The notes: generated by a model from the letters alone, not told the origin. A stretch of 64,000 nucleotides of DNA from Armatimonadia bacterium (GCA_014730065.1 WJIW01000254.1:553-64552), one strand, 5' to 3'. Positions 8,398 to 63,462 are shown, numbered from the stretch's first letter. Numbers and translations are program-made.

Positions 8398-8434
8398 GCT
8401 CGCCGATCCTCCACCCGAAGTCGTGCCCGCATCG

Positions 8435-9970
<1,536 letters not shown>

Positions 9971-18319: not shown

Positions 18320-19702
18320 CTACGTCGGCCGCTCCCGGACGGGAAACTCGGCCGAATCCACCCGCGCCTCGGAGAACAGCTTCTCGGCCCGGTCGACGGC
18401 ACTGGGGAGCTCGCTCGAGACATCGTGCTCCTCGCCGAGGTCGCGATCCAGCCGGTAGATCTCTATGGGCGCCTCTCGGTTCCGCCGCCTGACCGCCTTG
18501 ATATCGCCCATCCGCACCGCCTGGTGGAAGCCACCCTCGTGGAACTCCCAGTACAGGTAGTCGTGGTGGGGGGCGGTTCCGCCGGTGAGGGCGCCCGCCA
18601 TGGAGAGCCCATCGATGCCCGACGGCCCCGACGTGCCCGCCAGCTCGGCGGCCGTTGGCAGGAAGTCCCAGAAGGCCCAGGGATGGTCGCTGACCACGCC
18701 GGCGGGCCCTCCCTGGGGCCAGCGCACGATCATGGGAACCCGGATGCCTCCCTCGTGTAGGTCACGCTTGATGCCCCGCAGCGGCCCGTTGCTGTCGAAA
18801 AAGTCGGGATCGGCCCCGCCCTCGCGGTGGGGGCCATTGTCGCTGGTGAAGAGGATCACCGTCTCGTCATCGATGCCGAGGGCCTCCAGGCGCCGCAGAA
18901 GCCGGCCCACGTCCCGGTCCAGCCGATCGATCATCGCGGCATGGCCCTTCTGGGGGTTGGGCCAGTCTCGGTCGGCGTACCGGCCGTAGGCCGGGACCTC
19001 CATGCCGTCGCCCGTCTCACGGCCCAGCTCGTTGTTCGCGTGAGGCACGGTATAGGCCATATAGAGAAAGAACGGGTCCCGTGCGTGGCGGGTCACGAAG
19101 TCCAGGCCTCGCTCGGTGAACAGATCATGGGTGTACGTCTCACGCCGTCCGCCCCGATTGCCGGGGAGCGGGTAGCGCTCTTGGTTCTCCCACACATAGT
19201 CGGGGTAGTAGTTGTGGGCCCGGCCCTGATGCAGGTATCCGAACCACTCGTCGAATCCCTGGAGGTTGGGCACGCCGGAGCTGCCCTCTCGGCCCAGACC
19301 CCACTTGCCGAAGATGCCCGTCCGGTACCCGGCGTCGCGAAGCACCTCGGCCACGGTCACGTCCTCGGGCTCCAGGGGCACGCCGCCATTGCCGCGCACC
19401 CGGGCATGACCCATGTGCAGACCGGTCATCAGCCCACAGCGCGATGGGGCGCAGACGGTGCTGGCCGCGTAGCAGTCGGTGAACCGGATGCCCTCGTGGG
19501 CCAACCGATCGATGTTGGGTGTGGTGAGGATCTCCTGGCCGTAGCAGCCCAGGTCTCCGTATCCCAGGTCGTCGGCCATGATATAGATGATATTGGGCGC
19601 CCTGCCATCGCCGCCCACGCGGCCCTGCGCCCAGGCGCCCGGTACCGCGGCGATCGACGCCGCCAAGCCGGCCATACCCTTCAATGCCTGCCGCCGGTCC
19701 AC
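18320..19702 (-). CDS. Arylsulfatase (Cys-type sulfatase family), Tat/Sec-exported
   Basis: 460 aa. Signal MDRRQALKGMAGLAASIAAVPGAWAQ. Sulfatase signature IMADDLGYGDLGCYG and FGly motif CAPSRCGLMTG (C-x-P-S-R). Confidence 0.85.
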   Translation of the reverse strand: MDRRQALKGMAGLAASIAAVPGAWAQGRVGGDGRAPNIIYIMADDLGYGDLGCYGQEILTTPNIDRLAHEGIRFTDCYAASTVCAPSRCGLMTGLHMGHARVRGNGGVPLEPEDVTVAEVLRDAGYRTGIFGKWGLGREGSSGVPNLQGFDEWFGYLHQGRAHNYYPDYVWENQERYPLPGNRGGRRETYTHDLFTERGLDFVTRHARDPFFLYMAYTVPHANNELGRETGDGMEVPAYGRYADRDWPNPQKGHAAMIDRLDRDVGRLLRRLEALGIDDETVILFTSDNGPHREGGADPDFFDSNGPLRGIKRDLHEGGIRVPMIVRWPQGGPAGVVSDHPWAFWDFLPTAAELAGTSGPSGIDGLSMAGALTGGTAPHHDYLYWEFHEGGFHQAVRMGDIKAVRRRNREAPIEIYRLDRDLGEEHDVSSELPSAVDRAEKLFSEARVDSAEFPVRERPT

Positions 19703-48235: not shown

Positions 48236-50623
48236 ATGATCAGCCCACGCTCGATACTGCTCGTCGCCGCGGCCAGTGCGTTAGCCTGCACCGGCCACGC
48301 CCAGGATGAAGGAGATCCGGCCATGACGCCGCCCATGCAAGTCAGTGGACGCTACCCACACCTGGCGGTGACCAACTCCAGCAGCGAATGCGGCATCGGC
48401 GCCGTGGCCGAGTGGGCCGGGCGCCTGTGGCTCGTCACGTACCCGCCCCACGAGCCCTCGGGGAGCGATGACAAGCTCTACTGGATCGACGGCGACCTGG
48501 TGCGCCACACCCATCCGGCATCCATCGGCGGAACCCACGCCTCCAGAATGGTCCATCGAGAGTCAGAGCAGCTCATCATGGGACCGTACTTCATCGATGC
48601 CGGCGGCGGTGTGCGCGTCTTCGCCCTCGCCGACTTCCCCGCCCGCCTGACCGCTGCCATGCGCCACCTCGAGGACCCCGTCGGAAGGGTGTACCTCCTC
48701 GGCATGGAGGAGGAGTTGTACGAAGTCGATGTGCGGACCCTGGCCGTGCGAGAGCTGTACGGTCTCGACGGAATACCCGTTTCGGGCACCCATGCCAAGG
48801 GGGGCTACAAGGCGCAGGACCGGCTGGTGTTTAGCAACAATGGCGACCGCCGATGGGCCGAGGACGGCGACTCCGGCGCCCTCGCCCAAGGCGATGGAGT
48901 CCACTGGGAGGTCGTCCACCGCGCGCCCTTCACGGAAGTCACCTCACGTGAGGGCATCGGTCCGACGGACTCGGCTGTGCCCCTGTGGTGCCTGGGGTGG
49001 GACCATCGCTCGGTCATCCTGCGGATCCTGGATGGCGGCCAGTGGCACGTGCTACGACTTCCCAAGGGGAGCTACACCCACGACGCGCTCCATGGCTGGT
49101 ACACCGAATGGCCGCGTATCCGCGAAGTAAGAGGAGGGACGTACCTCGCGCACATGCATGGCCTGTTCTGGGACTTTCCACCTACGATGAGCGCCTCGGA
49201 CCGTTCTGGCCTCCGGCCCATCTCCACCTACCTCAAGATGCCTGTGGACTACTGCGACTGGAACGGCCGGCTGGTTATGGGCTGCAATGACGCCTCGACC
49301 TTCGAGAACCCCTTCGTGAACCAGCCCAGCTCCAACCTATGGCTCGGGTCTCTGGAGGATCTGGCTCAGCTCGGCGGCCCTGCGGGCTACGGAGGCCCGT
49401 GGGTGAGTGATGCGGTTCGAGCCGGCCAGGCCTCGGACCCCTTTTTGGTCGGTGGGTTCGCCCACGTCACGCTGCACCTCTCGGCGGAGCCCGAGGCCAC
49501 CTTCGACGTGGAAGTGGACCAGAGCGGACGCGGCGATTGGCGCGCCATCGAATCGGTCAAGACCGGCCCCGGAGGGTACGCCTACCGGGTATGGACCGAG
49601 CCACGGGGCGGCGACTGGATCCGTCTGGTGCCCCATGGGAGCGACACGGAGGTCACCGCGTATCTCCACCTGACGACTCCGTACAGGGAGCAGAGAGCCC
49701 ACGGCTCGCGCCGGGTGCCCCTGAGCTTCGACGGCCTCGCCGATATAGACAGCCAGGCCCCCTGGTCGGGCGGCATCATCCGGCCTCGGGGCGGTGATCT
49801 GGGAACCCTCCACGGCTTGCTCCATCCGGCCAATGAGGGACAAGCCACGTACGTGGAGATGACGGCCGACTTGGGCCTGCATGCCGCTGACGATCCCGAA
49901 GCCGCCGCTTGGCTGGAGACCAGCCACGGCCTCGGCGGACCGGACTTCTCACTGGACCCGGCCTCGGTGGTGATGACGGGCGACGGCGGCGGGACGTACC
50001 GGCTCCCTCGCACCGCCCCCCAGTACGACCGAGCCTTCGAGCTAGGCTGGCCCCGAGGCATCCGGGAGGTCGTCACCGAGCGCTCGCTGATGAACATCCA
50101 TGGGACCTTCTATGAGCTGCCCCGGCCCTCGTCGGGGGGGCTGGAGCGGATTCGGCCCATCTCCACCCACGGTAAGAGGATCGTCGACTTCTGCTCCTGG
50201 CGGGGCCTGCTCGTGATGTCCGGGGTGCGGGAGTCGGCCGCGGCCGATGGGCACGTCTTCAGGGGACCGGATGGTCTGGCCCTCTGGCTCGGGGACGTGG
50301 ATGACATATGGGCCATGGGCAAGCCAGTGGGTTACGGCGGGCCGTGGCTGGACACACCCGTGGCCGCCGGCCAGGCTTCGGACCCGTACCTTATGGCCGG
50401 TTACGATCACAAGACGCTGACCCTGTCCCACGACGCCGCTGCCGCGGTGACCATGACTGTACAGGTCACGGCCGGCTTCGACGTGTGGCACGACTACGCT
50501 ACGGTATTGGTCCCGCCAGGCGTGGAGAAGTCCCATTCCTTCGCCACCGGCTTCTCGGCCCACTGGATGCGGGTCGTGGCCGATACCGACTGCCGGGCTA
50601 CGGCGCAGCTTCTGTACCGGTAA
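48236..50623 (+). CDS. Secreted 795-aa hypothetical protein with internal tandem duplication of a ~170-aa module
   Basis: Signal peptide MISPRSILLVAAASALACTGHAQ (GGAGG RBS). Two homologous modules: …YLAHMHGLFWDFPP…LRPISTYLKMPVDYCDWNGRLVMG…GYGGPWVSDAVRAGQASDPFLVGGFAHVTLHLSAEP… and …LMNIHGTFYELPRP…IRPISTHGKRIVDFCSWRGLLVMSG…GYGGPWLDTPVAAGQASDPYLMAGYDHKTLTLSHDA… No family recognised. Confidence 0.55.
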   Translation: MISPRSILLVAAASALACTGHAQDEGDPAMTPPMQVSGRYPHLAVTNSSSECGIGAVAEWAGRLWLVTYPPHEPSGSDDKLYWIDGDLVRHTHPASIGGTHASRMVHRESEQLIMGPYFIDAGGGVRVFALADFPARLTAAMRHLEDPVGRVYLLGMEEELYEVDVRTLAVRELYGLDGIPVSGTHAKGGYKAQDRLVFSNNGDRRWAEDGDSGALAQGDGVHWEVVHRAPFTEVTSREGIGPTDSAVPLWCLGWDHRSVILRILDGGQWHVLRLPKGSYTHDALHGWYTEWPRIREVRGGTYLAHMHGLFWDFPPTMSASDRSGLRPISTYLKMPVDYCDWNGRLVMGCNDASTFENPFVNQPSSNLWLGSLEDLAQLGGPAGYGGPWVSDAVRAGQASDPFLVGGFAHVTLHLSAEPEATFDVEVDQSGRGDWRAIESVKTGPGGYAYRVWTEPRGGDWIRLVPHGSDTEVTAYLHLTTPYREQRAHGSRRVPLSFDGLADIDSQAPWSGGIIRPRGGDLGTLHGLLHPANEGQATYVEMTADLGLHAADDPEAAAWLETSHGLGGPDFSLDPASVVMTGDGGGTYRLPRTAPQYDRAFELGWPRGIREVVTERSLMNIHGTFYELPRPSSGGLERIRPISTHGKRIVDFCSWRGLLVMSGVRESAAADGHVFRGPDGLALWLGDVDDIWAMGKPVGYGGPWLDTPVAAGQASDPYLMAGYDHKTLTLSHDAAAAVTMTVQVTAGFDVWHDYATVLVPPGVEKSHSFATGFSAHWMRVVADTDCRATAQLLYR

Positions 50624-51894: not shown

Positions 51895-53109
51895 TTGGAC
51901 TTCCAGATCAAGCCTAGCGCCGTGTACGTCCTCACCGCCTGCCTGGCGGCCGTCACCCTCATCCTCACCACCCACTTCGGCCTGCTACAAGAGGACCCGC
52001 TCTCCAACCCCGCCGGCGACGGTACCGTCTGGGCCGGGCCCAGCACCGATCACGGACCCCTCGACACCTCCGAGCGCCTGCTCCTCTGGCACTCCGAAGC
52101 CACCAGCCCCGTCTCCGGCCCACTCATCGCCTACGCCGGACGATCGGCCACGAGCTCATCGGACATCCTCGTCGTCCCCGCCGCCGGAGGAATGGCCCGC
52201 AATCTCACCCGTCACCCCGCCCGAGACACCCTTCCCACCTGGTCGCCCGACGGGTCGCAGATCGCCTTCATCCGGTACGATGACCACCACCACTACGTGT
52301 GCGTGGCTGGCGTCCAAGGCGGCCCACGTCCCCGGGCCCTCTCCGGCCCACTCAAGGGCGCATGCGAGGTGGCGTGGCATCCGTCGGGTAACCGGCTGGC
52401 CTACAGGGGCACCGATCCCGAAGGCCCGTCGAAGATCCGTCTCGTCTCCCTCGATGGCGTCACAACGACTATAGGTGATGGGGCCTTCCGCGACCAGGAG
52501 CCCCAGTGGTCGCCCTCGGGCGACGCCCTCGCCTTCGTACGCTTCGACGGCAGTCAGTCCCGCATCATGCTTGCCGGCCCGAGCGGGGAGGAAGCCACCC
52601 CGCTCCTCTCAGACCCCGGCCATTACCAGGGCCTGGCCTGGAGCCCCGATGGCCGGTCCCTGGCGGCCGTTCACGTGGTCCAAGGGCAGCCCCACCGCAT
52701 CGTCGTCCTGCAGCCCGATACCGCCCAGGGCAAGGTCTTCGATGTGGACCAATCCCTTCGACCCCGGCTCAAGTGGACTCCCGACAGCCGGAAGCTCGTG
52801 GCCGCCGCGGAGGGGAAGCTGGACTGGGACGTAGTGCTCGTTGACGCGCGGACCGGTCGGGTTGAGCCGGTGACCGAGGGCATGGCCCAGCGGTGGAGTG
52901 CCGAGACGGCGCGGGGCCACACGGATCTCCGCCGCACGGCCATCGAGTACGAGGCCGAGATGGGCCCCAGCGGAGATGAGCTGCTCTTCCTCAGCGACCT
53001 CAGTGGCCCGCCCGTCGGTCTGTTCGTGATGACCCTGGACGGCCGTGGAATCAAGCAGCTCGCGAGTGACGTGACGGCCGCCACATGGCAGCCCGTGCCT
53101 ACCCCGTGA
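51895..53109 (+). CDS. TolB-like / PD40 WD40-like beta-propeller repeat protein (N-terminal TM anchor)
   Basis: 404 aa (track start is TTG; start uncertain). N-terminal hydrophobic segment AVYVLTACLAAVTLILTT; repeated PD40 units (…PTWSPDGSQIAFIRYD…, …PQWSPSGDALAFVRFD…, …LAWSPDGRSLAAV…, …LKWTPDSRKLVAAA…). Confidence 0.7.
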   Translation: MDFQIKPSAVYVLTACLAAVTLILTTHFGLLQEDPLSNPAGDGTVWAGPSTDHGPLDTSERLLLWHSEATSPVSGPLIAYAGRSATSSSDILVVPAAGGMARNLTRHPARDTLPTWSPDGSQIAFIRYDDHHHYVCVAGVQGGPRPRALSGPLKGACEVAWHPSGNRLAYRGTDPEGPSKIRLVSLDGVTTTIGDGAFRDQEPQWSPSGDALAFVRFDGSQSRIMLAGPSGEEATPLLSDPGHYQGLAWSPDGRSLAAVHVVQGQPHRIVVLQPDTAQGKVFDVDQSLRPRLKWTPDSRKLVAAAEGKLDWDVVLVDARTGRVEPVTEGMAQRWSAETARGHTDLRRTAIEYEAEMGPSGDELLFLSDLSGPPVGLFVMTLDGRGIKQLASDVTAATWQPVPTP

Positions 53110-54610
53110 GCACCACGGGCACCACCATGACCTCGGCGTGCCCCGCCCGGGTGATCTCCACGGCGGCCCGGATCGGCCCCTCGAGGGGCTCCTCGGTGGA
53201 CAGGTGGAACGCCACGGAGCCCTCGCAGGGGAAGGGCGCCTGCTTCACGTGGACCGAGGCGAAGGGCGCCGGATCGATCTCGATCCCCTCGGGCAGGTAC
53301 CACTTAATGCGCAGCGTGGCCGGGATCTTGTAGCGGTTGGTCAGCTTGAGCGTGACGGACCGGGCTTGCCCCGGCTTGAGCGATGGGTCGCCGCCGTAGT
53401 CCACCACTACGTCGAAGAAGGCGAAGCGGTGGCGGGTGCCGCCCAGCGCCGAGTACGGCGCTTGTCGCCGGTCGTGCCCAGCCAGGCGTGGCAAGCCGGC
53501 CAAGTCGGTGGGCGCGTCGGACAGAGCGATGCCGCGTCGGATTCGGCCGAGGACCTGGCGTGCCATGGCTTCGGTTCGGGCCGTCAGGTCATCCACATTC
53601 TGGGGAAGCTGATTGCCGAGGAAGCCCAGCTCACCCAAGTTCAGGCATGCCGTCTTGATGGTGCGGCCGATGGGCTCGATCCACTCCTCGGGTATCGCCT
53701 CGGCGCCATGGATGATCCCCCAGATGGCGCCCACCGTCGCCGCCGTACAGTCCGTATCCTCGCCGCAGTTCACGGTGGTGCAGAGCGTGCTGGCGAAGTC
53801 GCCCTCGCCGTAGAGAAGCCCGAGAACGACCAGAGCCACGTTCGACGGCGCGTCCCAACCCAGCTCGCCCTCGTGGAATCCCTTGGCGCGGTCCTCCTCA
53901 CTGGTGCACCATTCGTACCCCATGTGAGTGCTGCCTCGGAACTCGCCCAGCAGGCGGTCCCGGGCATCGCGCCAAGGCATGCCCGAATCGTACGAGTCGA
54001 TCACCTGGCGCACGGCCCTCGCGATCCCGCAGTCGCCGGGTATGTAGGAGAGCCCGATGTCGATCAGCTCCCGCAGGTCGCCCTGCACGAAGGCAGCGCT
54101 CTCCAGGGCCGCGCAGAACACCTCGCCGAAGAGCCCCTCGCCGTCGCCGTGATCGAGAATGCCGTCCTCGTACGCGTACCTCGCCGCCACGTCGGGGCAT
54201 CCGGGGGCGACACAGCCCCAGATCTCCGACCGGATGAAGCATCCGCAGCTATGCTTGTAGGGGTTGTTCAGGCTGCCGGACAGGGGTGGCATCAGTCCGG
54301 TCTGGAGGTTGATCTTGGCGTTGCCGTACTCGCACCAGTGGGGCGTCACGTAGAGCAGCCAGTACTCGGCCAGGGCATGGGCGTCGAGATCGGGGCCCAT
54401 CTCCTCGAGGGCCACCAGCCACAGAAGCTGGATGTCCAGGTCGTCGTTGGGCAGGGGCTCGCCGCCCAGGTCCTGGGTATAGAAGGACACGTCGTTAATC
54501 TGCCGGCGCCACTCGAAGGGCGCCCCCAGGGTACCCCCGATGTTCTTACCAAGCCAGCATCCCAGCACCTTAGTGCGGTACTCCGGGGCATTGAGGTTCA
54601 TCTGCGTCAC
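53099..54610 (-). CDS. ADP-ribosylglycohydrolase family protein with ~150-aa C-terminal beta-rich extension
   Basis: 503 aa. N-terminal ARH signature KVLGCWLGKNIGGTLGAPFE; Asp/Thr-rich metal-binding region (…CGEDTDCTAATVGAIWG…). 15-nt gap to the upstream fusion-cytochrome gene. Confidence 0.75.
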   Translation of the reverse strand: MTQMNLNAPEYRTKVLGCWLGKNIGGTLGAPFEWRRQINDVSFYTQDLGGEPLPNDDLDIQLLWLVALEEMGPDLDAHALAEYWLLYVTPHWCEYGNAKINLQTGLMPPLSGSLNNPYKHSCGCFIRSEIWGCVAPGCPDVAARYAYEDGILDHGDGEGLFGEVFCAALESAAFVQGDLRELIDIGLSYIPGDCGIARAVRQVIDSYDSGMPWRDARDRLLGEFRGSTHMGYEWCTSEEDRAKGFHEGELGWDAPSNVALVVLGLLYGEGDFASTLCTTVNCGEDTDCTAATVGAIWGIIHGAEAIPEEWIEPIGRTIKTACLNLGELGFLGNQLPQNVDDLTARTEAMARQVLGRIRRGIALSDAPTDLAGLPRLAGHDRRQAPYSALGGTRHRFAFFDVVVDYGGDPSLKPGQARSVTLKLTNRYKIPATLRIKWYLPEGIEIDPAPFASVHVKQAPFPCEGSVAFHLSTEEPLEGPIRAAVEITRAGHAEVMVVPVVLTG

Positions 54611-54625
54611 TCCGTCAGATCGAGA

Positions 54626-57600
54626 CTAGTGGACCACCTTGGGCCAGTATCGCTCTTCGTCGAAGTGGGGGCTCTTGCCCTCCGTGTGGCACGTGAGGCA
54701 GGTTGCGGCGGTGAGGGGCTCTAGGATCTCGTGGCCCTGGGCGGTAGCGGGACCGACTCGGTGGCAGGCCACGCACGAGACATCGGGCAGCCGGGCGGCC
54801 TCGGGCTCCAAGGGTGCCGCCGAGTGGCAGTCCCAGCAGTCGGGATCGAACTCCCGGTCCAGGTCTCGGAGCGTCTGGGCGGCCGAGGCGTGGGGGGTCG
54901 CCTGCCACTGCTCAAGCTGCTCGGCGTGGCACGCGCCACACGCCTGGGGCTGGGCGGACTCATCCACTCCCGCCGCCAGAATACGCTCCCGCTGCTCGGC
55001 CTGCACTTCGTCCTGGTAGTCGGCGATGAGTGCCGATACTTGGGGGCTCTCCAGGATCTGGTCATCCATCGGGATGAGCTGGGGCTCAGCCGATACGGGC
55101 CGAAGGTCCTCATCGAGCCGCAAGGTCAGCCGGCCGACCCACTCGCCGTTCTGGCCGGCGGAGACGATCCAGGTGTCATCCGCTCGCTCGGGCACCTGAA
55201 GCGACCGTCCCTCGTGGCCACACACGATCACGTCCACGTCCTCGACGGCCTCGGCGAGAGCTCGGGCATCCTCGACGTAGCCGTGGTAGAGCACCACGAC
55301 CAAGGAGGTGGACGGCGCCACCGAGGCGACTTCGGCTCGGACGCGCTCGAGGGGATCGGCCAGGGCCACGCCCTCGGGAGCCTCGCCATCACCGAAGGCG
55401 AAGGCTCGGGGGGAGGTGACCGACACCACGCCCACGCTCACGCCGCGCCGGTCGATGATCTGCGCCGAAGGCTCCACGCCGTCCACGGCGGCATTGGCCG
55501 AGACGTAGGGCATTGGCGAGCCCTGCATCAGCGCGGACAGCACATCAGCGCCATAGGTCAGGTCCTGATCGCCAATGGCGATGGCGTCGTAGTCCATGAC
55601 CTCGAAGGCCTTCTGGATGTACTCGAACTTGGTCCAGTCCTGGGTGGCCCCGAGCACGTCGCCGCTGTCGACCACGATGGAGGCGGGGTACATGTCCCGG
55701 AGCTCTGCTATGGCCCCGGCCTGACGGGTAAGGCCGCCGTAGGGGTTGCCGGGGCAGCGGCATGCTTCGAGCTGCCCGTTGGTGCTCCCCGTGTAGACGA
55801 TGGTGAGGGACGTGGGCGCCAGCCCGATGCGGTCTGCTATCGTGAGGGCTGTGTCGGCGCCGGCGATGTCGGCCACCTCGCGGTTCTCGTAGAGCAGCAG
55901 GCAGTCACCGTACACGCCCATCTGGGCCTGGGACTGGGCATCCCGGTAGAGGGCGTCCAAGATCCCGCCCGGTGCCGTCGCCTCGGCGCGGATGGCCTGG
56001 GGATCGAGGCCCGCCCGCTCCAGCGGCGCGTCCCAATAGCTGCTGTTCCCGGCGGCCAGCCGGGCCTCCAAGTACGCCGCCATGGCGTCGGGATGATCCC
56101 GCCACACAACGGCCTGGCGCGCCGCTTCCTCGATCTCCGCCACGCCCCCCTGGGCGGCCAGGTCACCCGACTCACTGAGGCTCAGGGCGGGGTGGAGCTC
56201 GACCTCGTACGCGGCCCGGTCGCCCGCTCGCTCCAGGAGAGAGAGCACGGTGGTCACCGCCTCCAGGGCCGGCGGATACTGGCAGCGGTAGTAGAGATCG
56301 ATACGACCCGGCTCGCGCTCGCGACCCACCATCAGGCCCGACGAGGTATGCTCGGGGAGGACCATGTAGTACTCCCCGGTCCGCGTCAGAGCCTGGGAGA
56401 TCTGCTCCAGGTTCGGGCGCTGCTCAAGCTGATCGGCGGGCAGGAAGAAGGCGGGGAGCCATCCCACCTCCGCCATCTCCGACAGCCGGCGCCCCTCCTC
56501 GCTATCGTAGGCCACCTCCCGTGGCTCGAGCCCCGGCATCAAAGCGGCGAGATCGCTCACCAAGGGCCGGTGACTCGTCAAGGCGGCCTCCTCGGAGCCG
56601 ACCACGATCAGCTCCAGGGGCGTGGGATCCTCGTACTCGCAGCGAGCGTCGCCCGTTCCGGCATCCCGGCAATAGCCGATCTGACCCGGCTCGAGGCAGT
56701 CGCCGTGATCGGTGCACTCGGGCACTCCCGCGCAGCGCTCCCCGCGAAGCTGGTCGGGGAGAGTCCAGCAGAACGTCCGGAGCAGGGCGGGGGCGAAGTT
56801 GTCGTCCTCGTACTCGATGTTGTTCAGGTAAAGGGTGGGCGTGCCGGGGATCATGAAGCGGCGAGCCCGGTTGGCGTGGGCTAGGAGCATCCGAGTGACT
56901 TGCTCGGAAGTCGCGTGCTCCCCGACGACCTCGGGGTCGATACCCTGGGCCTCCATGACGGCCGTGGCTTCGGCCCCCGGTTGCACGGCGCGCAGGGCAG
57001 CGTACCGGGTCACGGCCTCCCGCCCATAGAGGACCTGGATGGCGATCTCGCGGCGGGCCTCGGCGACGGCTTCGGGCCCGAAGGTCGACACGAACTGACC
57101 GGTCTCATTGTCGTAGTGAACCACATGCCATCGGCGGACCTGGACGCGATCCTCGCCGAAGAGACCCAGGGCCTCACGTAGCTGGGGCTCCAGCTCCAGG
57201 CAGTAGCCACAGCCCCAGGCGGTGTACGAATCGAGCACCAGCCGCGGCCCCTCGAGGGTGTCCTTGCGCTCCAGCCACTGGGCGACACGCTCCGCCTGCC
57301 CGGGGTCGTCGGGCACGCTGGGGTCCAGGGGAATCTCGCGCAGGCGGTACTCAGCGATCTCGGCTTCATCCACCCGGAGATCGAGGCGAGACAGGGCCCG
57401 GCCCTCCAGGCTGAACTCACCGATGATGGCCTCGCCGACCTTGTCCACAAGGCCGCCCGGACGGCGGTAGTGAGCATTGAGGAAGATGTCCACATCGGGC
57501 ACCGACTCGGCCAGGAGGCGGGTGCGGTCACTGCCCAGGTGAGAGAGGACCACCATCAGGTCGACTTGGCCCCGGATCTCGTCCACCACCGAGTGGACGC

Positions 57601-58195
57601 CTTCGATGGGGTCGCCCACCTGGGCCCACATGGCCTGGCGCGGATCGCCCAGGGCGTAGAGGTCCAGTGGTGTGGCGGCGGTGATCCCCACGGTGACGCC
57701 CCCGACCTCGGTGATGAGGTACCGCTCCACGCCCGCCTCACGGGCGGGCTCCTGGCCCATGTTCGCCGAGAGGAAGGGCGCGCCACCCAGCTCGGCGGCT
57801 CGGGCCAGGAACTCGGGCCCCCACTGTAGCTCCTCATCGCCCACGGCGTAGGCGGCGTAGCCCATGTCCGCACAGGCCCGGAGGTGGACCTCGGTGCGTG
57901 CCTGGTCGACTACGGGTCCCTCGGTGTACTCGTCGTACGCCGACCCGCCGAACTGACCCCCCGCATCCAGGAGCAGTGTGGGCGTGAGTCCGCCCCGGCG
58001 CACCTGCTCGATCATGTGGGCCCGGCGGGCGATGCCCCCGTCCTTGCTCACGACGCAGTCGCAGGGGGTGACCATGGCGTGGGTCTCGCCGGTGTACGCG
58101 ATAGTGATGTCTTTGACGTCGGCGCCGACGGGCAGAGCTGGCAGCAAGGCGAAGAGGCAGAGCGCCCGGGCGACCCGGGCGCCGGGAATGGTCAT
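54626..58195 (-). CDS. Periplasmic multidomain fusion: 2x degenerate 5'-nucleotidase/metallophosphoesterase-like domains + DsbA-like thioredoxin (CGYC) + C-terminal tetraheme c-type cytochrome (4x CxxCH)
   Basis: Track ORF 54626..58315 trimmed to MTIPGARVARALCLFALLPALPVGADV (signal; ATG 58195). Domain 1 (DITIAYTGETHAMVTPCDCVV…LLLDAGGQFGGS…VVLSHLGSDRTRLLAESVPDVDIFLNAH) and domain 3 (LTIVYTGSTNGQLEACRCPGNPYGG…VVVLYHGYVEDARALAEAVEDVDVIVCGHEG) follow the 5'-NT layout, but the D-x-H / GNHE metal ligands are replaced by Cys-containing motifs. Middle region has WGCGYC … IPGTPT (DsbA-like). Last ~110 aa: CGACH, CWDCH, CVACH, CLTCH. Confidence 0.6.
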   Translation of the reverse strand: MTIPGARVARALCLFALLPALPVGADVKDITIAYTGETHAMVTPCDCVVSKDGGIARRAHMIEQVRRGGLTPTLLLDAGGQFGGSAYDEYTEGPVVDQARTEVHLRACADMGYAAYAVGDEELQWGPEFLARAAELGGAPFLSANMGQEPAREAGVERYLITEVGGVTVGITAATPLDLYALGDPRQAMWAQVGDPIEGVHSVVDEIRGQVDLMVVLSHLGSDRTRLLAESVPDVDIFLNAHYRRPGGLVDKVGEAIIGEFSLEGRALSRLDLRVDEAEIAEYRLREIPLDPSVPDDPGQAERVAQWLERKDTLEGPRLVLDSYTAWGCGYCLELEPQLREALGLFGEDRVQVRRWHVVHYDNETGQFVSTFGPEAVAEARREIAIQVLYGREAVTRYAALRAVQPGAEATAVMEAQGIDPEVVGEHATSEQVTRMLLAHANRARRFMIPGTPTLYLNNIEYEDDNFAPALLRTFCWTLPDQLRGERCAGVPECTDHGDCLEPGQIGYCRDAGTGDARCEYEDPTPLELIVVGSEEAALTSHRPLVSDLAALMPGLEPREVAYDSEEGRRLSEMAEVGWLPAFFLPADQLEQRPNLEQISQALTRTGEYYMVLPEHTSSGLMVGREREPGRIDLYYRCQYPPALEAVTTVLSLLERAGDRAAYEVELHPALSLSESGDLAAQGGVAEIEEAARQAVVWRDHPDAMAAYLEARLAAGNSSYWDAPLERAGLDPQAIRAEATAPGGILDALYRDAQSQAQMGVYGDCLLLYENREVADIAGADTALTIADRIGLAPTSLTIVYTGSTNGQLEACRCPGNPYGGLTRQAGAIAELRDMYPASIVVDSGDVLGATQDWTKFEYIQKAFEVMDYDAIAIGDQDLTYGADVLSALMQGSPMPYVSANAAVDGVEPSAQIIDRRGVSVGVVSVTSPRAFAFGDGEAPEGVALADPLERVRAEVASVAPSTSLVVVLYHGYVEDARALAEAVEDVDVIVCGHEGRSLQVPERADDTWIVSAGQNGEWVGRLTLRLDEDLRPVSAEPQLIPMDDQILESPQVSALIADYQDEVQAEQRERILAAGVDESAQPQACGACHAEQLEQWQATPHASAAQTLRDLDREFDPDCWDCHSAAPLEPEAARLPDVSCVACHRVGPATAQGHEILEPLTAATCLTCHTEGKSPHFDEERYWPKVVH

Positions 58196-58226
58196 CGTGT
58201 GGGTCCTTCGCTCCCCCGATGCGGGG

Positions 58227-59564
58227 TTATTGGGGATCCGCGCAGCAGCGGAATCCGACGTAGTCTCCCTTAAGGACGGGGTGCTTCGGTCCTCCCGTGC
58301 TACAGTCGAATCCATCGAGCCGCTGGTCGCGGAAGGACGCGCCGCGGATGTCCACGGTGGTGTCCTCGGAGCCCCAGCCGCTCCCGATGTACTCGCTTAC
58401 ATTACCGATCATGTCATAGAGCCCGTACCCGCTGACGCAGTAAGGGCGGGACCCGATGCGCTCGGGGTGGGCGTCCTCCCCCATCATGACGCCGATGTTG
58501 CAGGCGCCCCGCACGGGACGGTCGCCGTACGGGAAGCGGTGCCCGTCGGGCCCTTCGCAGCCGGCCTCCCACTCGTCGGGCTCACAGAGGCGCTTCCCCT
58601 TGCCCCCGCACCAGCCCGCGGCGCCGAACTGGTTGATGTCGGTTACGGGCTTGGCACCCACGATGTTGGGCGCCTCGTAGATGTCGATGCATACCCGGTC
58701 CTCGACCAGGCGCATGCCCGCGGGACACTTGGGCTCCGGGGGCACGCTCTTCATGAAAAGAGTGTCATCGGCCTGGCCACCCATTAGGGTAGGGGTCTGG
58801 GCGCCGCCCTCGGCCCCCTGGAAGGCCTGCTGAGCCGTCGCCGTGGTGAAGGCCACCAGCTCCTTGATGGAGACGTTCGAGTCGGCGGGCTCAGTGTCGG
58901 CCATGCCCGTGATGGCGTTGGTCAGGCAGAACCCCAGCAGGGGACGCTCCAGGGACTCGTCGTTGAGCTCCTGGCCCGGCGAGACGGCCGAAAGCAGGAG
59001 GCAGCTCGCGGCCAGAGGCTCGAGGACGTTCCCGGGGATGGCCAAATCCTCGGGAGTGCCCTCGGGCTTGAAGGCGCTCCAGGGCGAAGTGTCGAGGATC
59101 AGCAGCTTCTTGCCGGCGGGAATGGCCGCCATGTACTCGGCGAGCTGCTCCACCGTCAGCGCCGTACTGGGCAGGTCATCCAGGTCGGCGTTGTAGGGGC
59201 AGACGTAGATGGTGGGAGCGCCCTCTTCGCTCGCCTGGGCGACCATGGTCAGGCAGAGGTAGACGAAGACCTCGTCGGTCTCGGCAGCGGTCTGACAGAA
59301 CTCCAGGGCGCCTACCAGGTTCGCCCGGCTCGCCTGCCCGCCCGAGAGGGCGCCCACATGCTCCATGGGCACGGCGCCGATGTCGGGGTTGGCGAACCGC
59401 TCGGCGGCGATGAAGGCATAGGTCTCCCCCTCGACGCGGCCGGGGATGTCGAAGTCCTCGTACTCGTTCACGCCCGCACATACGGCGAAGCGCTGGGCTT
59501 CCTGGGCCCACACCCCCGTCGCAAGCAACCCGAGTAAGATGGACCCTAGCCACACACGTTTCAT
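58227..59564 (-). CDS. Secreted caspase-like (catalytic-dyad-substituted) domain + formylglycine-generating-enzyme (FGE/SUMF1) domain protein
   Basis: 445 aa, signal MKRVWLGSILLGLLATGVWAQ. N-terminal FAVCAGVNEYEDF…LLILDTSPWS resembles the peptidase C14 fold, but the His (YLCLTM) and Cys (ILDTSP) positions are substituted. C-terminal FGE-sulfatase domain (…YGLYDMIGNVSEYIGSGW…RGASF…CCADPQ). Confidence 0.6.
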   Translation of the reverse strand: MKRVWLGSILLGLLATGVWAQEAQRFAVCAGVNEYEDFDIPGRVEGETYAFIAAERFANPDIGAVPMEHVGALSGGQASRANLVGALEFCQTAAETDEVFVYLCLTMVAQASEEGAPTIYVCPYNADLDDLPSTALTVEQLAEYMAAIPAGKKLLILDTSPWSAFKPEGTPEDLAIPGNVLEPLAASCLLLSAVSPGQELNDESLERPLLGFCLTNAITGMADTEPADSNVSIKELVAFTTATAQQAFQGAEGGAQTPTLMGGQADDTLFMKSVPPEPKCPAGMRLVEDRVCIDIYEAPNIVGAKPVTDINQFGAAGWCGGKGKRLCEPDEWEAGCEGPDGHRFPYGDRPVRGACNIGVMMGEDAHPERIGSRPYCVSGYGLYDMIGNVSEYIGSGWGSEDTTVDIRGASFRDQRLDGFDCSTGGPKHPVLKGDYVGFRCCADPQ

Positions 59565-59618: not shown

Positions 59619-60650
59619 ATGGATACACTAGAGACAGGGGCGATTCGTTTGGCACGAGCAGGCCGGTCCAAGCCGTGGGTGCGCATCGGCTCTCTCGTCG
59701 GGCTGCTCATCGTCGCTCCCTTCCTGCTCTACGCCGCGGTGCGTCTGTACGGCGCCTACATGGATCAGAAGGCCGCCGGAAACCGTGAGATCTGCCTCGA
59801 CAACCTAAGGGTCATCGGAACCTTGCTCCGATCGTACGCCCTGGATCACGATGACCGCCTGCCTCCCGCCGACCGCTGGGAGGACGTACTCCTTGAAGAC
59901 ACGGGAGACCCCCGAGTGTTCCAGTGCCCCTCGGCTCCCAAGGGCACCCGGTCCGGCTATGCCTACTTCGCCGACCTCTCGAGCGGCTCCCTCGCCAACC
60001 TGATCTCCCCCGCCGACGTGCCCATGGTGTACGACTCACCCAAGGGCACGTGGAACGCACGGGACAGCTACCCGGAGCTGCCCAGCCCGCCTCGCCACGG
60101 CGGACGCAATCATGCCCTCATGGCCGACGGCTCGGTGCAGCGCCTCGCACCTTTCGACGTCTGGGTCGGCGCCCGGTTCCAGGATGACGGCGAGGGCGGG
60201 CCGGGCGAAGTGAAGACACTGCCGGGCCATACGGGCCCCAGCGTGCTGTTCCAAGCCCAGACGCCCATCGCCTTCCGGACCGAGCACGGCATCGAGTGGA
60301 CGGCTCGGGAGCTGCCGGACGGGTACCTGTTCGTGGGCCCCGCGGAGTCGGAGATCCTGACCCGGATTCGCTGGCCGGGCGAGGGAGAGGGGCTCCCTCC
60401 CCTACCGCCGACGGCTACTATCGAGGACCGGTACCCGATCGCCATGGCTCCCGACCCGGGCCAGTACTCGGTCATAGGTGAGGCGATGGAGTATGTGGAT
60501 GGCGACGTCCGGGTGCTTCGGATCGAGCTGCCCATGGATCCGGCCATGGTGGCCACGGTGCGGGTGCCCACGGCCGCTGGGGAGGAGCAGCTCGGCGAGG
60601 CCTGCCTTCCCCTCACGGCTCTCAGGCGGGTCGAGACATCGGGCCCATAG
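59619..60650 (+). CDS. DUF1559-like H-X9-DG protein with N-terminal TM anchor instead of prepilin motif
   Basis: 343 aa. TM segment WVRIGSLVGLLIVAPFLLYAAV; then the region conserved with the DUF1559 genes at 37480-39417 (NREICLDNLRVIGTLLRSYALDHDDRLPP vs AKQTSCLSNQRQIATALLSYAQDYDERLP) and H-X9-DG motif HGGRNHALMADGS. Confidence 0.6.
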   Translation: MDTLETGAIRLARAGRSKPWVRIGSLVGLLIVAPFLLYAAVRLYGAYMDQKAAGNREICLDNLRVIGTLLRSYALDHDDRLPPADRWEDVLLEDTGDPRVFQCPSAPKGTRSGYAYFADLSSGSLANLISPADVPMVYDSPKGTWNARDSYPELPSPPRHGGRNHALMADGSVQRLAPFDVWVGARFQDDGEGGPGEVKTLPGHTGPSVLFQAQTPIAFRTEHGIEWTARELPDGYLFVGPAESEILTRIRWPGEGEGLPPLPPTATIEDRYPIAMAPDPGQYSVIGEAMEYVDGDVRVLRIELPMDPAMVATVRVPTAAGEEQLGEACLPLTALRRVETSGP

Positions 60651-60696: not shown

Positions 60697-61395
60697 ATGC
60701 ATCGCTGGCCGATCGGACTGCTTCTCGCCCTCATCGCCATTCCCGCGGCTCTGGCCCAGAGCGGGCCCTTGCCCGACGTTCCCCGCGACCATCCCGCGGC
60801 ATGGGCCGTGGCCACCTTGTGGCGGGCCGATGTCGTCCGCGGCGGTCCCGACGGCCTGTTCCACGGGGACGAGCCCATCACCGAGCTGGAAGCCATCGTT
60901 CTGGCCGCCAGGTTGAGTGCCGCGGTCAACAACGAGTACCTCATCCGGGATGACTGGACCGTGGATCAGTACCTGGCGCGGTACTGGGAGTCGGACTACC
61001 CCGCTCGCGGGGGCGTGCCCCTGCCCGCGGGGCATTGGGCCGCTATGGAGTGGAACTACCTGGCGTGGGTGACCCCGCGTGAGCTGGAGCTGCTCGATGG
61101 CTGGCCGCGGCCGCTACCCACCCGGTACCAGGCGGCCCTGTCCGCGGCCCGGGTCCTTCTGGCCACCCGGCGCGCCGTGCGTGAGGGCATCGCCGACACC
61201 TATGCCGAGACGATGCTCCCCGATACAGCGATCAACGACACCCTCCCGCTGGACCAAGTGCCATGGGAGGAGCATATGTCCGAGCACGGCGAGCCGCCCA
61301 TGCCGGTCGAGGGAGCCGGGGGCGCCCAAGCCGGTCCGATGCAGCCCCCGCCGCCCCCGGCCGAGATGATGTCCGGGCCCGGCGGGGATGGCTAG
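60697..61395 (+). CDS. Secreted S-layer-homology (SLH) domain protein with Pro/Met-rich C-terminus
   Basis: Track ORF 60478..61395 trimmed to MHRWPIGLLLALIAIPAALAQ (GAGGAGG RBS 7 nt upstream). SLH-type motif PDVPRDHPAAWAVATLWRADVVRGGPDGLFHGDEPITELEAIVLAARL. Confidence 0.55.
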   Translation: MHRWPIGLLLALIAIPAALAQSGPLPDVPRDHPAAWAVATLWRADVVRGGPDGLFHGDEPITELEAIVLAARLSAAVNNEYLIRDDWTVDQYLARYWESDYPARGGVPLPAGHWAAMEWNYLAWVTPRELELLDGWPRPLPTRYQAALSAARVLLATRRAVREGIADTYAETMLPDTAINDTLPLDQVPWEEHMSEHGEPPMPVEGAGGAQAGPMQPPPPPAEMMSGPGGDG

Positions 61396-61409: not shown

Positions 61410-61703
61410 TCAGTGGCTGGCATCCTCGCACTCGCAGGGGGAGGCGCCGCACCGGGGACAGCCTCCGGCGTACCGCTGGGCCGCCTCCTCCAGGCTGACG
61501 CCCGCCATGTTCGCGAGACTGGCCAGCCACGCCAGACAGTCGCTGAACTCGTGGGCTAGCTCCTCGGGCTTGCCGTGGCGCAGCGCTCCGGCAAGCTCAC
61601 CGACCTCCTCCACAAGCCACGCGTAGCTCTCGAACAGGCCGCGCCTGCTATCCTTGTCCAGGTAAGTCTCACCGATGCTGTCCTGAAACTCGCGAAGGGT
61701 CAC
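61410..61703 (-). CDS. MazG-like nucleotide pyrophosphohydrolase domain protein with C-terminal Cys cluster
   Basis: 97 aa, GTG start after GGAGGT. MazG core LREFQDSIGETY…LVEEVGELAGAL…EELAHEFSDCLAWLASLANMAGVSLEEA; tail GGCPRCGASPCECEDASH. Confidence 0.6.
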   Translation of the reverse strand: MTLREFQDSIGETYLDKDSRRGLFESYAWLVEEVGELAGALRHGKPEELAHEFSDCLAWLASLANMAGVSLEEAAQRYAGGCPRCGASPCECEDASH

Positions 61704-61728
61704 GGCCTACCTCCAAGCGCGCGAGCTG

Positions 61729-62493
61729 CTACTTGTTCCCCTTGGCCAGGCCTTCGCCGACCAGGTACCGGTAGCTGTCGGCCACGGCGGTCATCATGTC
61801 GTCCGCGCAGTGGTCCAGCTCCACGATCAGCCACTGACATGCGTCGGGATCGATGGCGCCGATGATGGCGGGCATGTCCATCTTGCCCTTGCCCACGGCG
61901 GTATGGGGATCGGGCCCATCGTCGCCGGTAAGGGGGCCATCCTTGACGTGCAGGAGTGGGATCCGCGAGCCGTACTGCTTGATGGTCTCAACGGGATCGA
62001 CCCCACCGTACCGGCACCAGTACACGTCAAGCTCGGAGTGGAGATCGGGCGCCTCATCCATGAGGATCTGGTAGGGCGTCTTGCCGTCGAACTGTCGGTC
62101 GAACTCCCACCAGTGGTTGTGGAAGGCCACCTTGATGCCGTGGGGCTTCATCAGCTCGGCCGCTTTCTGGAAGGCCGCGGCGCATTCCCTGACCGAGTCC
62201 AGGCTCTCCATCTTGTCGGCCCCGAACCCCGTCACCATAACGTCGTTCCCGAGGAGCCGGCACTGAGCCACGGCATCGTCGACCGTCTCCTCGGTGGGCA
62301 TGCCCATATGGCTGCTGCACACCTTCACGCCCGCCTCGTCGAACAGGGCCTTGGCCTCCTGTGGCGACAGGCCCTGGAGGCCTGCGGGCTCGACGCCCAC
62401 ATAGCCGATCTCTCCTACCTGCTTGACGGTGCCTGCGAAGTCGTCCTTGGCGAGCTCGCGAACGGTGTAGAGCTGTAGGGCGATGGGTTTCAT
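61729..62493 (-). CDS. Sugar phosphate isomerase/epimerase (xylose-isomerase-like TIM barrel)
   Basis: Track ORF 61729..62832 trimmed to MKPIALQLYTVRELAKDDFAGTVKQVGEIGYVGVE… (254 aa; AGGTGG RBS). AP_endonuc_2 / xylose-isomerase-like TIM-barrel layout with conserved His/Asp/Glu positions. Confidence 0.75.
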   Translation of the reverse strand: MKPIALQLYTVRELAKDDFAGTVKQVGEIGYVGVEPAGLQGLSPQEAKALFDEAGVKVCSSHMGMPTEETVDDAVAQCRLLGNDVMVTGFGADKMESLDSVRECAAAFQKAAELMKPHGIKVAFHNHWWEFDRQFDGKTPYQILMDEAPDLHSELDVYWCRYGGVDPVETIKQYGSRIPLLHVKDGPLTGDDGPDPHTAVGKGKMDMPAIIGAIDPDACQWLIVELDHCADDMMTAVADSYRYLVGEGLAKGNK

Positions 62494-62679
62494 CTCGCGC
62501 CACCTGCCGTTTCCGGGGGTTGGGATCGTGGGGCGGAGGTTCGCATGGGAATGGCCGCGGCCCTGCCCGGCGTCGAAGTCGCTCCCACCGGCCCGGGTGG
62601 GGGCCCCGCCTCGCACGAGGGGGAGGCCCTCCCGCGCTCCGGCCCGAACCTGGCTCCTCGCGGCGGGAGGAGAGCATTC

Positions 62680-63462
62680 ATGAGTGAAGCCAAGACCGAC
62701 ATCTACATCGGGAGCATTCTCCTGGAGCGTAATCGCTGGAAGCCCGGCAAGATCCCCTCGTACCGAGTCAGCGAGTGGATCCCACGGTTCCAGGCCGCGG
62801 GGTTCGATGGCATCGAGCTGTGGGAGCACCACGCGACCCTTGCACCCGCCGATGAGCTAGCGGCACTGGTCGCCTCGCCTCTGCCCATCGCGATCTTCAA
62901 CGAGTACTCTTCCTTCGACCAGCCCGTGGACGAGAACCGCTGCCTATCGGCCCTGATGACGCACCATCTCGGCGCGGGGGGCGTGAAGTACAACCTGGGC
63001 AATGAGCCCGCTCTGCGGGACACCTACATGGCCGCCCTGCGAGACTGGGCGGCTCGGTTGCCGGAGGGCTGCCGTATCCTCTGTGAGTGCCATCCCGGCA
63101 ACGTGATGGACGATCCCCGTTTCGTGGCCGACTTCCTCGGGGAGCTAGGTGGGCCCGGCTTCCAGGCCATGTGCCATCCCTTCAGCGTGCCCCTGAAGGA
63201 GCTGGAGGAGTGGCTGGACGTCACCGGTGACCGCACCACCCACGCCCATGTGCAGCTCCGGGACGCTCAGAACGCGATGCATCACCTGGAGTACGATACC
63301 GCCTATGCCCGCGACGTGCTGGCCCTGCTGCGGTCCAAGGGCTTCTCGGGGACCTTCACCGTGGAGTTCACCGAGACCACCGGCGCGGCCGAGGAGGACA
63401 TGAGTGTCCTCTGGGAGTACGCCGTCCGGGACCTGGCTTTCCTTAGGGAGAACTGGCAATGA
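62680..63462 (+). CDS. Sugar phosphate isomerase/epimerase (xylose-isomerase-like TIM barrel), second copy
   Basis: Track ORF 62545..63462 trimmed to MSEAKTDIYIGSILLERNRWKPG… (260 aa; GGGAGGAGAG upstream). Divergent from the other isomerase gene (~186-bp shared intergenic region). Confidence 0.7.
   Translation: MSEAKTDIYIGSILLERNRWKPGKIPSYRVSEWIPRFQAAGFDGIELWEHHATLAPADELAALVASPLPIAIFNEYSSFDQPVDENRCLSALMTHHLGAGGVKYNLGNEPALRDTYMAALRDWAARLPEGCRILCECHPGNVMDDPRFVADFLGELGGPGFQAMCHPFSVPLKELEEWLDVTGDRTTHAHVQLRDAQNAMHHLEYDTAYARDVLALLRSKGFSGTFTVEFTETTGAAEEDMSVLWEYAVRDLAFLRENWQ

Follow-up and report, generated by a model that had tools for sequence, protein, structure and literature searches.

A conserved gene pair for a caspase-fold/FGE-like protein and an UshA-like tetraheme fusion in Armatimonadia: a candidate envelope redox module

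The window analysed here is a 64,000-nucleotide stretch of DNA from an Armatimonadia bacterium (GCA_014730065.1 WJIW01000254.1:553-64552). Its minus strand carries three consecutive genes that we refer to as g1, g2 and g3. The product of g1 (58227-59564, 445 residues) is predicted to be secreted; its N-terminal signal peptide is followed by a caspase-fold domain and by a Cys-rich domain of the FGE/pFGE-like kind. The g2 gene (54626-58195, 1189 residues) encodes a predicted secreted fusion protein with UshA-like, thioredoxin-fold and tetraheme cytochrome c parts, and g3 (53099-54610 from a GTG start, 503 residues) encodes an ADP-ribosylglycohydrolase. A preliminary description of the sequence had grouped the three genes into a single periplasmic system. 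In the analysis reported below, we arrive at a smaller unit. With a little better than even confidence, we favour the view that g1 and g2 together form a two-gene, Sec-exported envelope module for thiol:cytochrome c redox chemistry, to which g3 is a passenger.

Calling of open reading frames (ORFs) confirmed the three minus-strand genes at the coordinates given above, as well as the intergenic gaps of 31 nt (g1/g2) and 15 nt (g2/g3, with the GTG start). At its longest, the g2 ORF reaches to 58315, but the start at 58195 is supported by the homologues: each of the ten full-length proteins begins with the signal peptide. For g3, a GGAG sequence is found 8 nt 5' of an ATG at 54601, and the NCBI protein P0199 is identical to the 500-residue product expected from this codon. 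The true start is therefore likely to be ATG 54601, in which case the g2-g3 gap is probably 24 nt. The GC content at third codon positions of the three genes (0.86-0.88) is like that of the remaining genes of the window. When the minus strand was scanned between 52 and 61 kb, neither a sigma-70-like promoter nor an intrinsic terminator was detected between the genes, and when the junctions and ends (three regions) were folded as RNA, they did no better than shuffled sequence. These results are neutral on co-transcription, neither for nor against it. At its 3' end, g3 overlaps convergently by 11 nt (53099-53109) with the end of a plus-strand gene for a PD40/TolB-like beta-propeller protein (51895-53109).

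Domain architecture of g2 and g1

The g2 protein is a member of the NCBIfam family NF041198, 'UshA-like (seleno)protein', which it matches in three stretches with 319.4 bits (curated cutoff 275, E 3.8e-95). Residues 797-1057, in the second UshA-like module, are homologous to family 2 of this type, NF049981, with a score of 86.8 bits (E 1.5e-24) that stays below the 140-bit cutoff. The profile of an alignment of the ten full-length g2 homologues (A1) was compared with the PDB. It matched 5'-nucleotidases at residues 26-240 (E 1.7e-26 for this first domain) and 793-1083, SoxB at residues 115-303, DsbA at residues 312-458 (E 6e-4), and cytochrome c554, NrfB and OcwA (6i5b) at residues 1080-1176. 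An AlphaFold2 (AF2) model of g2 had a predicted local distance difference test score (pLDDT) of 77, and a Foldseek search with it led to CD73, UshA and SoxB, which share the 5'-nucleotidase N-domain fold. The middle domains were assigned by profiles and secondary structure, because the full-length Foldseek search returned only 5'-nucleotidase/SoxB matches. Taken together, the Pfam, NCBIfam and PDB profile matches agree with the preliminary description of g2 as a phosphoesterase-like/DsbA/tetraheme fusion.

UshA-like proteins (COG0737) were listed among the CxU selenoprotein families by Zhang & Gladyshev 2008 (PMC2398784), and the family is given as a CxU selenoprotein of unknown function (PMC2398784, PMC13188914). 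With the families NF041198 and NF049981, g2 shares the 5'-nucleotidase-like N-domain fold and a P-C-x-C motif, located at the position of the P-C-G-U motif of the selenoprotein relatives, after which the NCBIfam entry is named UshA_like_PCGU. Unlike the selenocysteine forms, g2 is a Cys form. It also differs from either family alone in joining both of them, with an inserted DsbA/GILT-like CxxC domain and a tetraheme end.

The two UshA-like domains span residues ~26-310 (57266-58120, minus strand; delimited by the PDB 5'-nucleotidase profile and invariant columns) and ~795-1075 (54971-55813, minus strand; delimited by NF049981, the PDB 5'-nucleotidases matching residues 793-1083, and an alignment of stand-alone relatives, A3). 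In both, the dinuclear metallophosphoesterase motif set (DxH, GD, GNHE, H, GH) is incomplete, as read from alignments to solved 5'-nucleotidases and from invariant columns. In domain 1, DxH is changed to E37-T-H39, GD to G79-G80 with loss of the bridging Asp, and GNHE to G119-D-E-E122 with loss of the Asn-His pair, while H219 and H242 are retained. In domain 2, motif I reads S-T-N806 and GNHE reads G-D-Q-D, with GD (G845-D846), H971 and H994 retained. Compared with 5'-nucleotidase/UshA/CD73 and SoxB, g2 thus has the same fold and keeps some ligand positions in each domain (H39, H219 and H242 in the first, D846, H971 and H994 in the second), but differs in its altered motifs I-III and in having no C-terminal nucleotide-binding domain. 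Both domains lack residues that are required for dinuclear-metal phosphoester hydrolysis.

Directly past motif I, beside the former metal site, each UshA-like domain has an invariant CxC motif. The first, P44-C45-D46-C47 (C45-D-C47 at 58055-58063, minus strand), is invariant in all ten full-length homologues in A1, and is found in 11 of 13 homologues of the separate N-terminal type that we call type a below. The second, C812-R-C814 (55754-55762, minus strand), is invariant in A1 and in all 11 stand-alone sequences of the C-terminal type, type b, in alignment A3.

The fold raises the question whether g2 could be a hydrolase, either a periplasmic nucleotidase or a SoxB-like thiosulfohydrolase, and as such a compact Sox-like sulfur-oxidation enzyme. 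The likeness to 5'-nucleotidases and SoxB extends to the sequence (TIGR04486, E 7e-36), and Sox systems join SoxB with c-type cytochromes and periplasmic thioredoxins. However, the SoxB match of 123.6 bits is far under the equivalog cutoff of 550 bits, and g2 is far below all other 5'-nucleotidase/SoxB equivalog cutoffs as well. The replaced residues include the motif II bridging Asp and the GNHE Asn-His pair in domain 1, and motifs I and III in domain 2. The 5'-nucleotidase C-terminal substrate domain (PF02872) was not detected in g2 at E <= 0.01, although it is present in the more distant g2 matches P0014-P0020, and none of the neighbourhoods that were inspected contains sox genes. Hydrolase activity of g2 hence appears improbable.

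Between the UshA-like domains, g2 has a DsbA/GILT-like thioredoxin-fold domain (residues ~312-480; 56756-57262, minus strand; PF01323 and PDB DsbA) with the motif C329-G-Y-C332. Its likeness to DsbA/DsbC/DsbG and GILT lies in the CGYC thioredoxin-fold domain and in weak DsbA and GILT profile matches; the PF01323 (DSBA) score of 18.7 bits is under the gathering cutoff of 25.6, and the second Cys varies in relatives. In A1, C329 is invariant and C332 is found in nine of the ten sequences. The domain is followed by a Cys-rich linker (56627-56770, minus strand) with the invariant or near-invariant Cys columns C476, C488, C494, C500, C509 and C519, a region that has a weak likeness to the TRX/Cys-rich region of vacuolar sorting receptors. 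Next come a small alpha/beta domain and a second, degenerate DsbA-like domain without CxxC (together residues ~525-790; 55826-56623, minus strand; AF2 secondary structure). The alignment has no conserved Cys at the active-site position of this second domain, and the equivalent region of the shorter homologue P0086 (type c, see below) has a weak DSBA match.

The C-terminal part of g2 (residues ~1080-1189; 54629-54958, minus strand) is a tetraheme cytochrome c that matches PF13435 (Cytochrome_C554) with 30.7 bits (cutoff 20.8). Four CXXCH motifs, at C1086, C1120, C1141 and C1166, are invariant in A1 and in the type-b alignment A3 and predict heme attachment. The last residue of g2, His1189 (54629-54631; column H400 of A3), is invariant and preceded by SP.F..E.Y. 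The terminal His is also the last residue of stand-alone type-b proteins, except for a few with short C-terminal extensions. It may serve as a distal heme ligand.

In g1, residues ~25-275 (58740-59492, minus strand) form a caspase-hemoglobinase-fold domain according to AF2, Foldseek and hhalign. The caspase family match in Pfam/NCBIfam profile searches is weak. In an AF2 model built on eight orthologues, the domain reached pLDDT values of 70-97, and its best Foldseek matches in the PDB were the MALT1 paracaspase, GSU0716 and metacaspases (E 3e-7 to 1e-5). A comparison by hhalign with P0046, a bona fide Peptidase_C14+FGE protein with the motifs FAGHG and LDSCFSG, gave an end-to-end alignment with a probability of 99.4%. 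In this alignment, the catalytic Cys position is taken by the invariant Ser160, and the catalytic His is gone, with a gap or L105/T106 in its place.

Residues ~280-445 of g1 (58230-58727, minus strand) form a partial FGE-sulfatase-like domain, which matches positions 88-254 of the 255 in PF03781 with 49.8 bits (cutoff 23.3, E 5e-13) and contains ten invariant Cys residues. Since this domain was modelled poorly (pLDDT <50), its assignment comes from sequence profiles. It is closest to the inactive human paralogue SUMF2/pFGE (1y4j), its best PDB match (E 1.4e-12). When aligned with Thermomonospora curvata FGE (5nxl), the first catalytic (Cu-binding) Cys falls in an insertion that is missing from g1, and the second catalytic Cys aligns with Val/Leu. 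Compared with the Peptidase_C14+FGE fusions, g1 therefore differs in the Cys to Ser replacement, the lost His, the partial FGE domain and the missing Cu-binding Cys pair. Its characterisation as a catalytically substituted caspase-like/FGE protein is thus well founded, with respect to the fold, the replaced dyad and the presence of an FGE-sulfatase domain.

Families and gene neighbourhoods

When 1.84 billion representatives were searched with the g2 profile, the full g2 architecture turned up in only about 4 clusters (50% identity). Dozens of proteins cover one part of g2 each. Those of type a (~750-800 residues, g2 profile positions ~10-787) consist of UshA-like domain 1 with PCxC, the DsbA/GILT-like domain, the Cys-rich linker and the degenerate DsbA-like domain (NF041198). 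Those of type b (~400-450 residues, g2 profile positions ~790-1186) consist of UshA-like domain 2 with CxC and a c554/NrfB-type tetraheme cytochrome c. There are also type-c forms of ~590 residues without the CxxC domain. Types a and b are thus separate and widespread, and g2 is a fusion of two independent families. Judged from these architectures, it is a rare, end-to-end 'Rosetta stone' fusion of two widespread, uncharacterised and predicted periplasmic families. The 962-residue protein P0128 combines an UshA-like domain 2 without CxC, a tetraheme part, a DsbA/GILT-like domain, the Cys-rich linker and a thioredoxin-like domain, and its domain order identifies it as an independent, permuted fusion of the same predicted modules.

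Relatives of g2 were not retrieved by a single-protein g2 scan of genome contigs, but were retrieved with the type-b alignment A3. This yielded 78 stand-alone type-b-like loci, in Nitrospinota, Marinimicrobia, Krumholzibacteriota, Planctomycetota and others. In 29 Nitrospinota loci (including L037, L042, L044, L061, L071-L078, L087 and L091), the gene immediately after the type-b gene (match at ~8001-9230), on the same strand, codes for a ~208-residue DsbA-family protein with a CGHC motif (36 bits against PF01323, cutoff 25.6), and the one after that for an S41/PDZ C-terminal processing protease. The neighbours of type-c genes and of a few type-a genes (tig-clpP-serC-serA-[gene]-leuA-like-purA-ompA) represent lineage-specific housekeeping synteny and are uninformative on function.

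For g1 and g2, about ten full-length relatives each were found. We compared the window with the loci of g2 homologues L001-L013, L018, L019 and L098-L105. The source labels read Armatimonadia, Armatimonadetes UBA1398 or candidate division WS1, and do not fit the 'PVC' context that had been assumed at first. In every locus with a g2 identity of at least 53%, g2 is immediately preceded by g1 in the same orientation, at a distance of 8-57 nt, and the genes that flank the pair vary from locus to locus. In L001 (40% g2 identity), the contig ends within a g1-like gene, of which just the last 59 residues remain. The full-length g1 homologues (P0021-P0028) all come from g2-bearing lineages, and g1 orthologues differ from other Peptidase_C14+FGE fusions in occurring only beside g2. 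As g1 lacks both catalytic sites and is yet strictly co-distributed with g2, its most likely role is that of a binding or adaptor subunit without catalysis of its own, or else of a Cys-rich client.

The pair is usually accompanied by two further genes. Divergent from g1 is a gene for a membrane-anchored protein of 343 residues, here d343 (59619-60650, plus strand; delimited by alignment A6 and locus comparison), with an invariant H160-x9-D170-G171 motif of the H-X9-DG/DUF1559-like kind and a weak TIGR04294 match; no Pfam family was matched. It has the same position in eight of the first ten loci, and also in L018, L019, L098-L101 and L105. Downstream of d343 lies a gene for an SLH-domain envelope protein (60697-61395, plus strand; ~232 residues from an internal ATG; PF00395, E 4e-4), which has an orthologue in seven of the first ten loci and again in L018, L019, L098-L101 and L105. 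On the evidence of these neighbourhoods, the g1-g2 module with its usual divergent H-X9-DG-like and SLH gene pair is limited to a small Armatimonadia/'WS1' clade.

The situation is different for g3. From the ATG start (53099-54601, minus strand), it encodes an ARH/DraG-fold protein with a ~190-residue C-terminal extension. Residues 17-309 cover all 287 positions of PF03747 (158.6 bits, cutoff 26.2, E 3.5e-46), the sole Pfam family that g3 matches at E <= 0.01; a macro domain was not found. The Pfam/NCBIfam hidden Markov model searches thus upheld the calls of FGE, UshA-like, DsbA-like, cytochrome and ADP_ribosyl_GH domains, but not the 'macro' label once given to g3, as PF03747 denotes the ARH/DraG fold. 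Compared with ARH1-3, DraG and Tri1, g3 has a full-length PF03747 match, but its alignment with solved ARHs is limited to the C-terminal metal motif (GEDTDCTAA, which aligns with DraG); it adds the C-terminal domain and scores below the DraG and Tri1 equivalog cutoffs. Counted from the GTG start, the ARH domain already begins at residue 17, which leaves no room for a signal peptide. Of the three products that had been thought to be secreted or periplasmic, g1 and g2 are indeed predicted to be exported, whereas g3 is, by the same kind of prediction, a cytoplasmic enzyme.

The g3 family comprises at least 3952 matches, and identity remains at 56-76% in Planctomycetota, Chloroflexi and Hydrogenedentes. 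Its length and conservation place g3 in a distinct, highly conserved putative ARH subfamily of ~505-525 residues. In Hydrogenedentes, a relative stands alone between a GH3 gene and rpoBC. A g3 gene follows g2 only in L010, from a 97%-identical strain, and is absent from this position in all other related loci, including that of a 75%-identity relative. In other loci the slot after g2 is taken by BNR_2, an FAD oxidoreductase, a polysaccharide lyase 8, an unannotated 274-residue gene or a convergent gene for a HAD hydrolase or a flavoprotein. Between the window and L010, g1, g2 and d343 are 97-98% identical and g3 only 92%; the passenger gene thus diverges faster.

In the view that g1, g2 and g3 make up one periplasmic redox-coupled protein-modification system, one would point to the co-directional genes, the short gaps, the junctions without promoter, terminator or stable hairpin, and the gene order kept in L010. 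Against it are the absence of g3 downstream of g2 elsewhere, the missing signal peptide, the ARH rather than macro type of g3, and a family that has thousands of members across phyla, some of them alone, compared with about ten for g1 and g2. Synteny, predicted localisation and family spread thus speak against a system of three components that includes an ADP-ribosyl hydrolase, and we regard it as very unlikely. By the criterion of the preliminary description itself, the system would be refuted if related genomes lacked the gene order; the order is lacking for g3, but is kept for g1-g2 in loci with at least 53% g2 identity. The notion of a periplasmic redox-coupled module remains reasonable for this pair, without g3. 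Given the discordant phyletic patterns, g3 is to be seen as an unrelated passenger in a variable slot after g2, outside the putative system. It may be co-transcribed with g1-g2 in the source species.

Possible function of the g1-g2 pair

In the two-gene envelope redox module that we favour, the cysteines of the CxC and CxxC motifs would be the catalytic redox centres of g2, and the four hemes would wire them to a periplasmic electron-transfer chain. The g2 protein would then act as a thiol(selenol):cytochrome c oxidoreductase, whose substrate would be either the thiol/disulfide of a protein or a small molecule that contains sulfur or selenium. Interchange of selenocysteine and Cys within a family is a classical mark of a redox-active residue. 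Motifs of the CGYC/CPYC type resemble those of DsbC, DsbG and glutaredoxin, and this makes g2 slightly more likely to be a reductase or isomerase.

Several observations weigh against this assignment. The CxC motif is missing from two of the 13 type-a proteins, and in type-a relatives the DsbA-like motif mostly reads CPYS or CPYG, so that its second Cys is not conserved. Because E37, H39, D120, H219 and H242 are retained, a mononuclear metal site is possible in domain 1. A selenocysteine variant, with an in-frame TGA at the CxC position, was not present in any of the loci fetched, and the CxC loops and the cytochrome have low confidence in the AF2 model. With regard to the pairing, the full-length g2 homologue P0053 in L103 (40% identity) has no g1 upstream, and g1-g2 adjacency is limited to one Armatimonadia/WS1 clade, so that inherited synteny is possible. 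Stand-alone type-a and type-b genes are not adjacent to each other, and g1-like genes were not found beside them, nor beside the genes for P0011 and P0012, two short homologues of type a. A single exception was seen at 6468-10274 of L041, from an Omnitrophota metagenome-assembled genome, where an FGE-sulfatase gene lies directly 5' of one for an 800-residue UshA-like protein without cytochrome. The product of the FGE-sulfatase gene has 443 residues, and its FGE-sulfatase domain is complete and contains a CxxxxC pair (WCYSAFCC). This is the sole FGE/UshA-like adjacency seen beyond the Armatimonadia clade.

The observations on pairing are also what one would expect if g1 and g2 were adjacent merely by shared ancestry and worked independently, g1 as a lectin-like or pseudo-protease surface protein and g2 as a self-contained redox enzyme. 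The restriction to one clade, the L103 homologue without g1, and the stand-alone type-a and type-b genes without g1-like neighbours would all fit. On the other hand, the short-gap adjacency holds down to identities of 43-57% for g1 and 53-60% for g2 despite replaced neighbours, and no full-length g1 homologue occurs outside g2-bearing lineages. Independent action of the two proteins is therefore rather unlikely, though it deserves more weight than the other alternatives.

Caspase-like and ADP-ribosylation-related proteins occur in defence systems, and the locus might accordingly be taken for an anti-phage defence or toxin system of caspase-like and ADP-ribosyl-processing proteins. A PADLOC search had no match for g1, g2, g3 or d343, and this interpretation was rejected. 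The caspase dyad is missing, g1 and g2 are predicted exported proteins of a redox type, and the neighbourhoods are metabolic or housekeeping in character. A role in defence is scarcely credible.

A functional parallel to the proposed thiol:cytochrome c module may be the mitochondrial disulfide relay of Mia40 (with a CPC motif), Erv1 and cytochrome c, as g2 has CxC motifs and a c-type cytochrome that may be an electron sink or source. The parallel with g2 is one of analogy only. Compared with the Dsb and Mia40-Erv1 systems, the g1-g2 locus has no DsbB, DsbD or Erv1 homologue, and the coupling between heme and thiol is putative. In a more far-reaching version, to which we assign a low likelihood, g1-g2 would work without oxygen to modify or oxidise cysteines in the periplasm, and would be wired to c-type hemes. 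It would either be a bacterial counterpart of the Mia40-Erv1-cytochrome c relay, or a cytochrome-linked route with the FGE-like g1 presenting Cys-containing clients. Such clients may include Cys-type sulfatases like the one encoded at 18320-19702.

If this far-reaching version were extended to the orphan 'UshA-like' CxU selenoprotein families, they too would act as thiol/selenol:cytochrome c oxidoreductases, with a dead phosphoesterase as their scaffold. These families have been catalogued since 2008, and no function has been proposed for them. A hint comes from one branch, in which a tetraheme cytochrome is always part of the protein; its genes are linked to DsbA genes in Nitrospinota, and it has been joined at least twice to DsbA/GILT-like domains. 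Together, these associations lead to the testable idea of thiol/selenol chemistry coupled to envelope heme electron transfer. It would add a further route of electron supply or removal for periplasmic thiol chemistry, alongside DsbB/VKOR and DsbD, and it would mean that the phosphoesterase fold has been re-used as a redox scaffold. In the literature on SoxB-like cytochrome fusions and on WS1 genomes, we found nothing relevant.

Other features of the window

A plus-strand gene (48236-50623) encodes a 795-residue secreted protein without a Pfam or NCBIfam match. It has an internal duplication, in which YGGPWVSDAVRAGQASDPFLVGGFAHVTLHLS recurs as YGGPWLDTPVAAGQASDPYLMAGYDHKTLTLS.

The minus-strand gene at 18320-19702, ~35 kb from the FGE-like g1, encodes a Cys-type sulfatase (PF00884) with the sequence C-A-P-S-R and an RR-containing signal peptide. 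Further away, the minus strand between ~6900 and 17650 is occupied by a nuo operon for NADH:quinone oxidoreductase. The NuoL-like and NuoD-like subunits were recognised by Pfam, and the other subunits are assigned from the order of the ORFs.

Beyond the SLH gene, at 61410-63462, a gene for a MazG-like pyrophosphohydrolase adjoins two divergent genes for xylose-isomerase-like TIM-barrel proteins (AP_endonuc_2). Genes of the AP_endonuc_2 family recur near g1-g2 in L002, L003 and L006, which probably reflects the sugar metabolism of the lineage. The window also carries sugar-metabolism genes and genes for DUF1559 pseudopilins.

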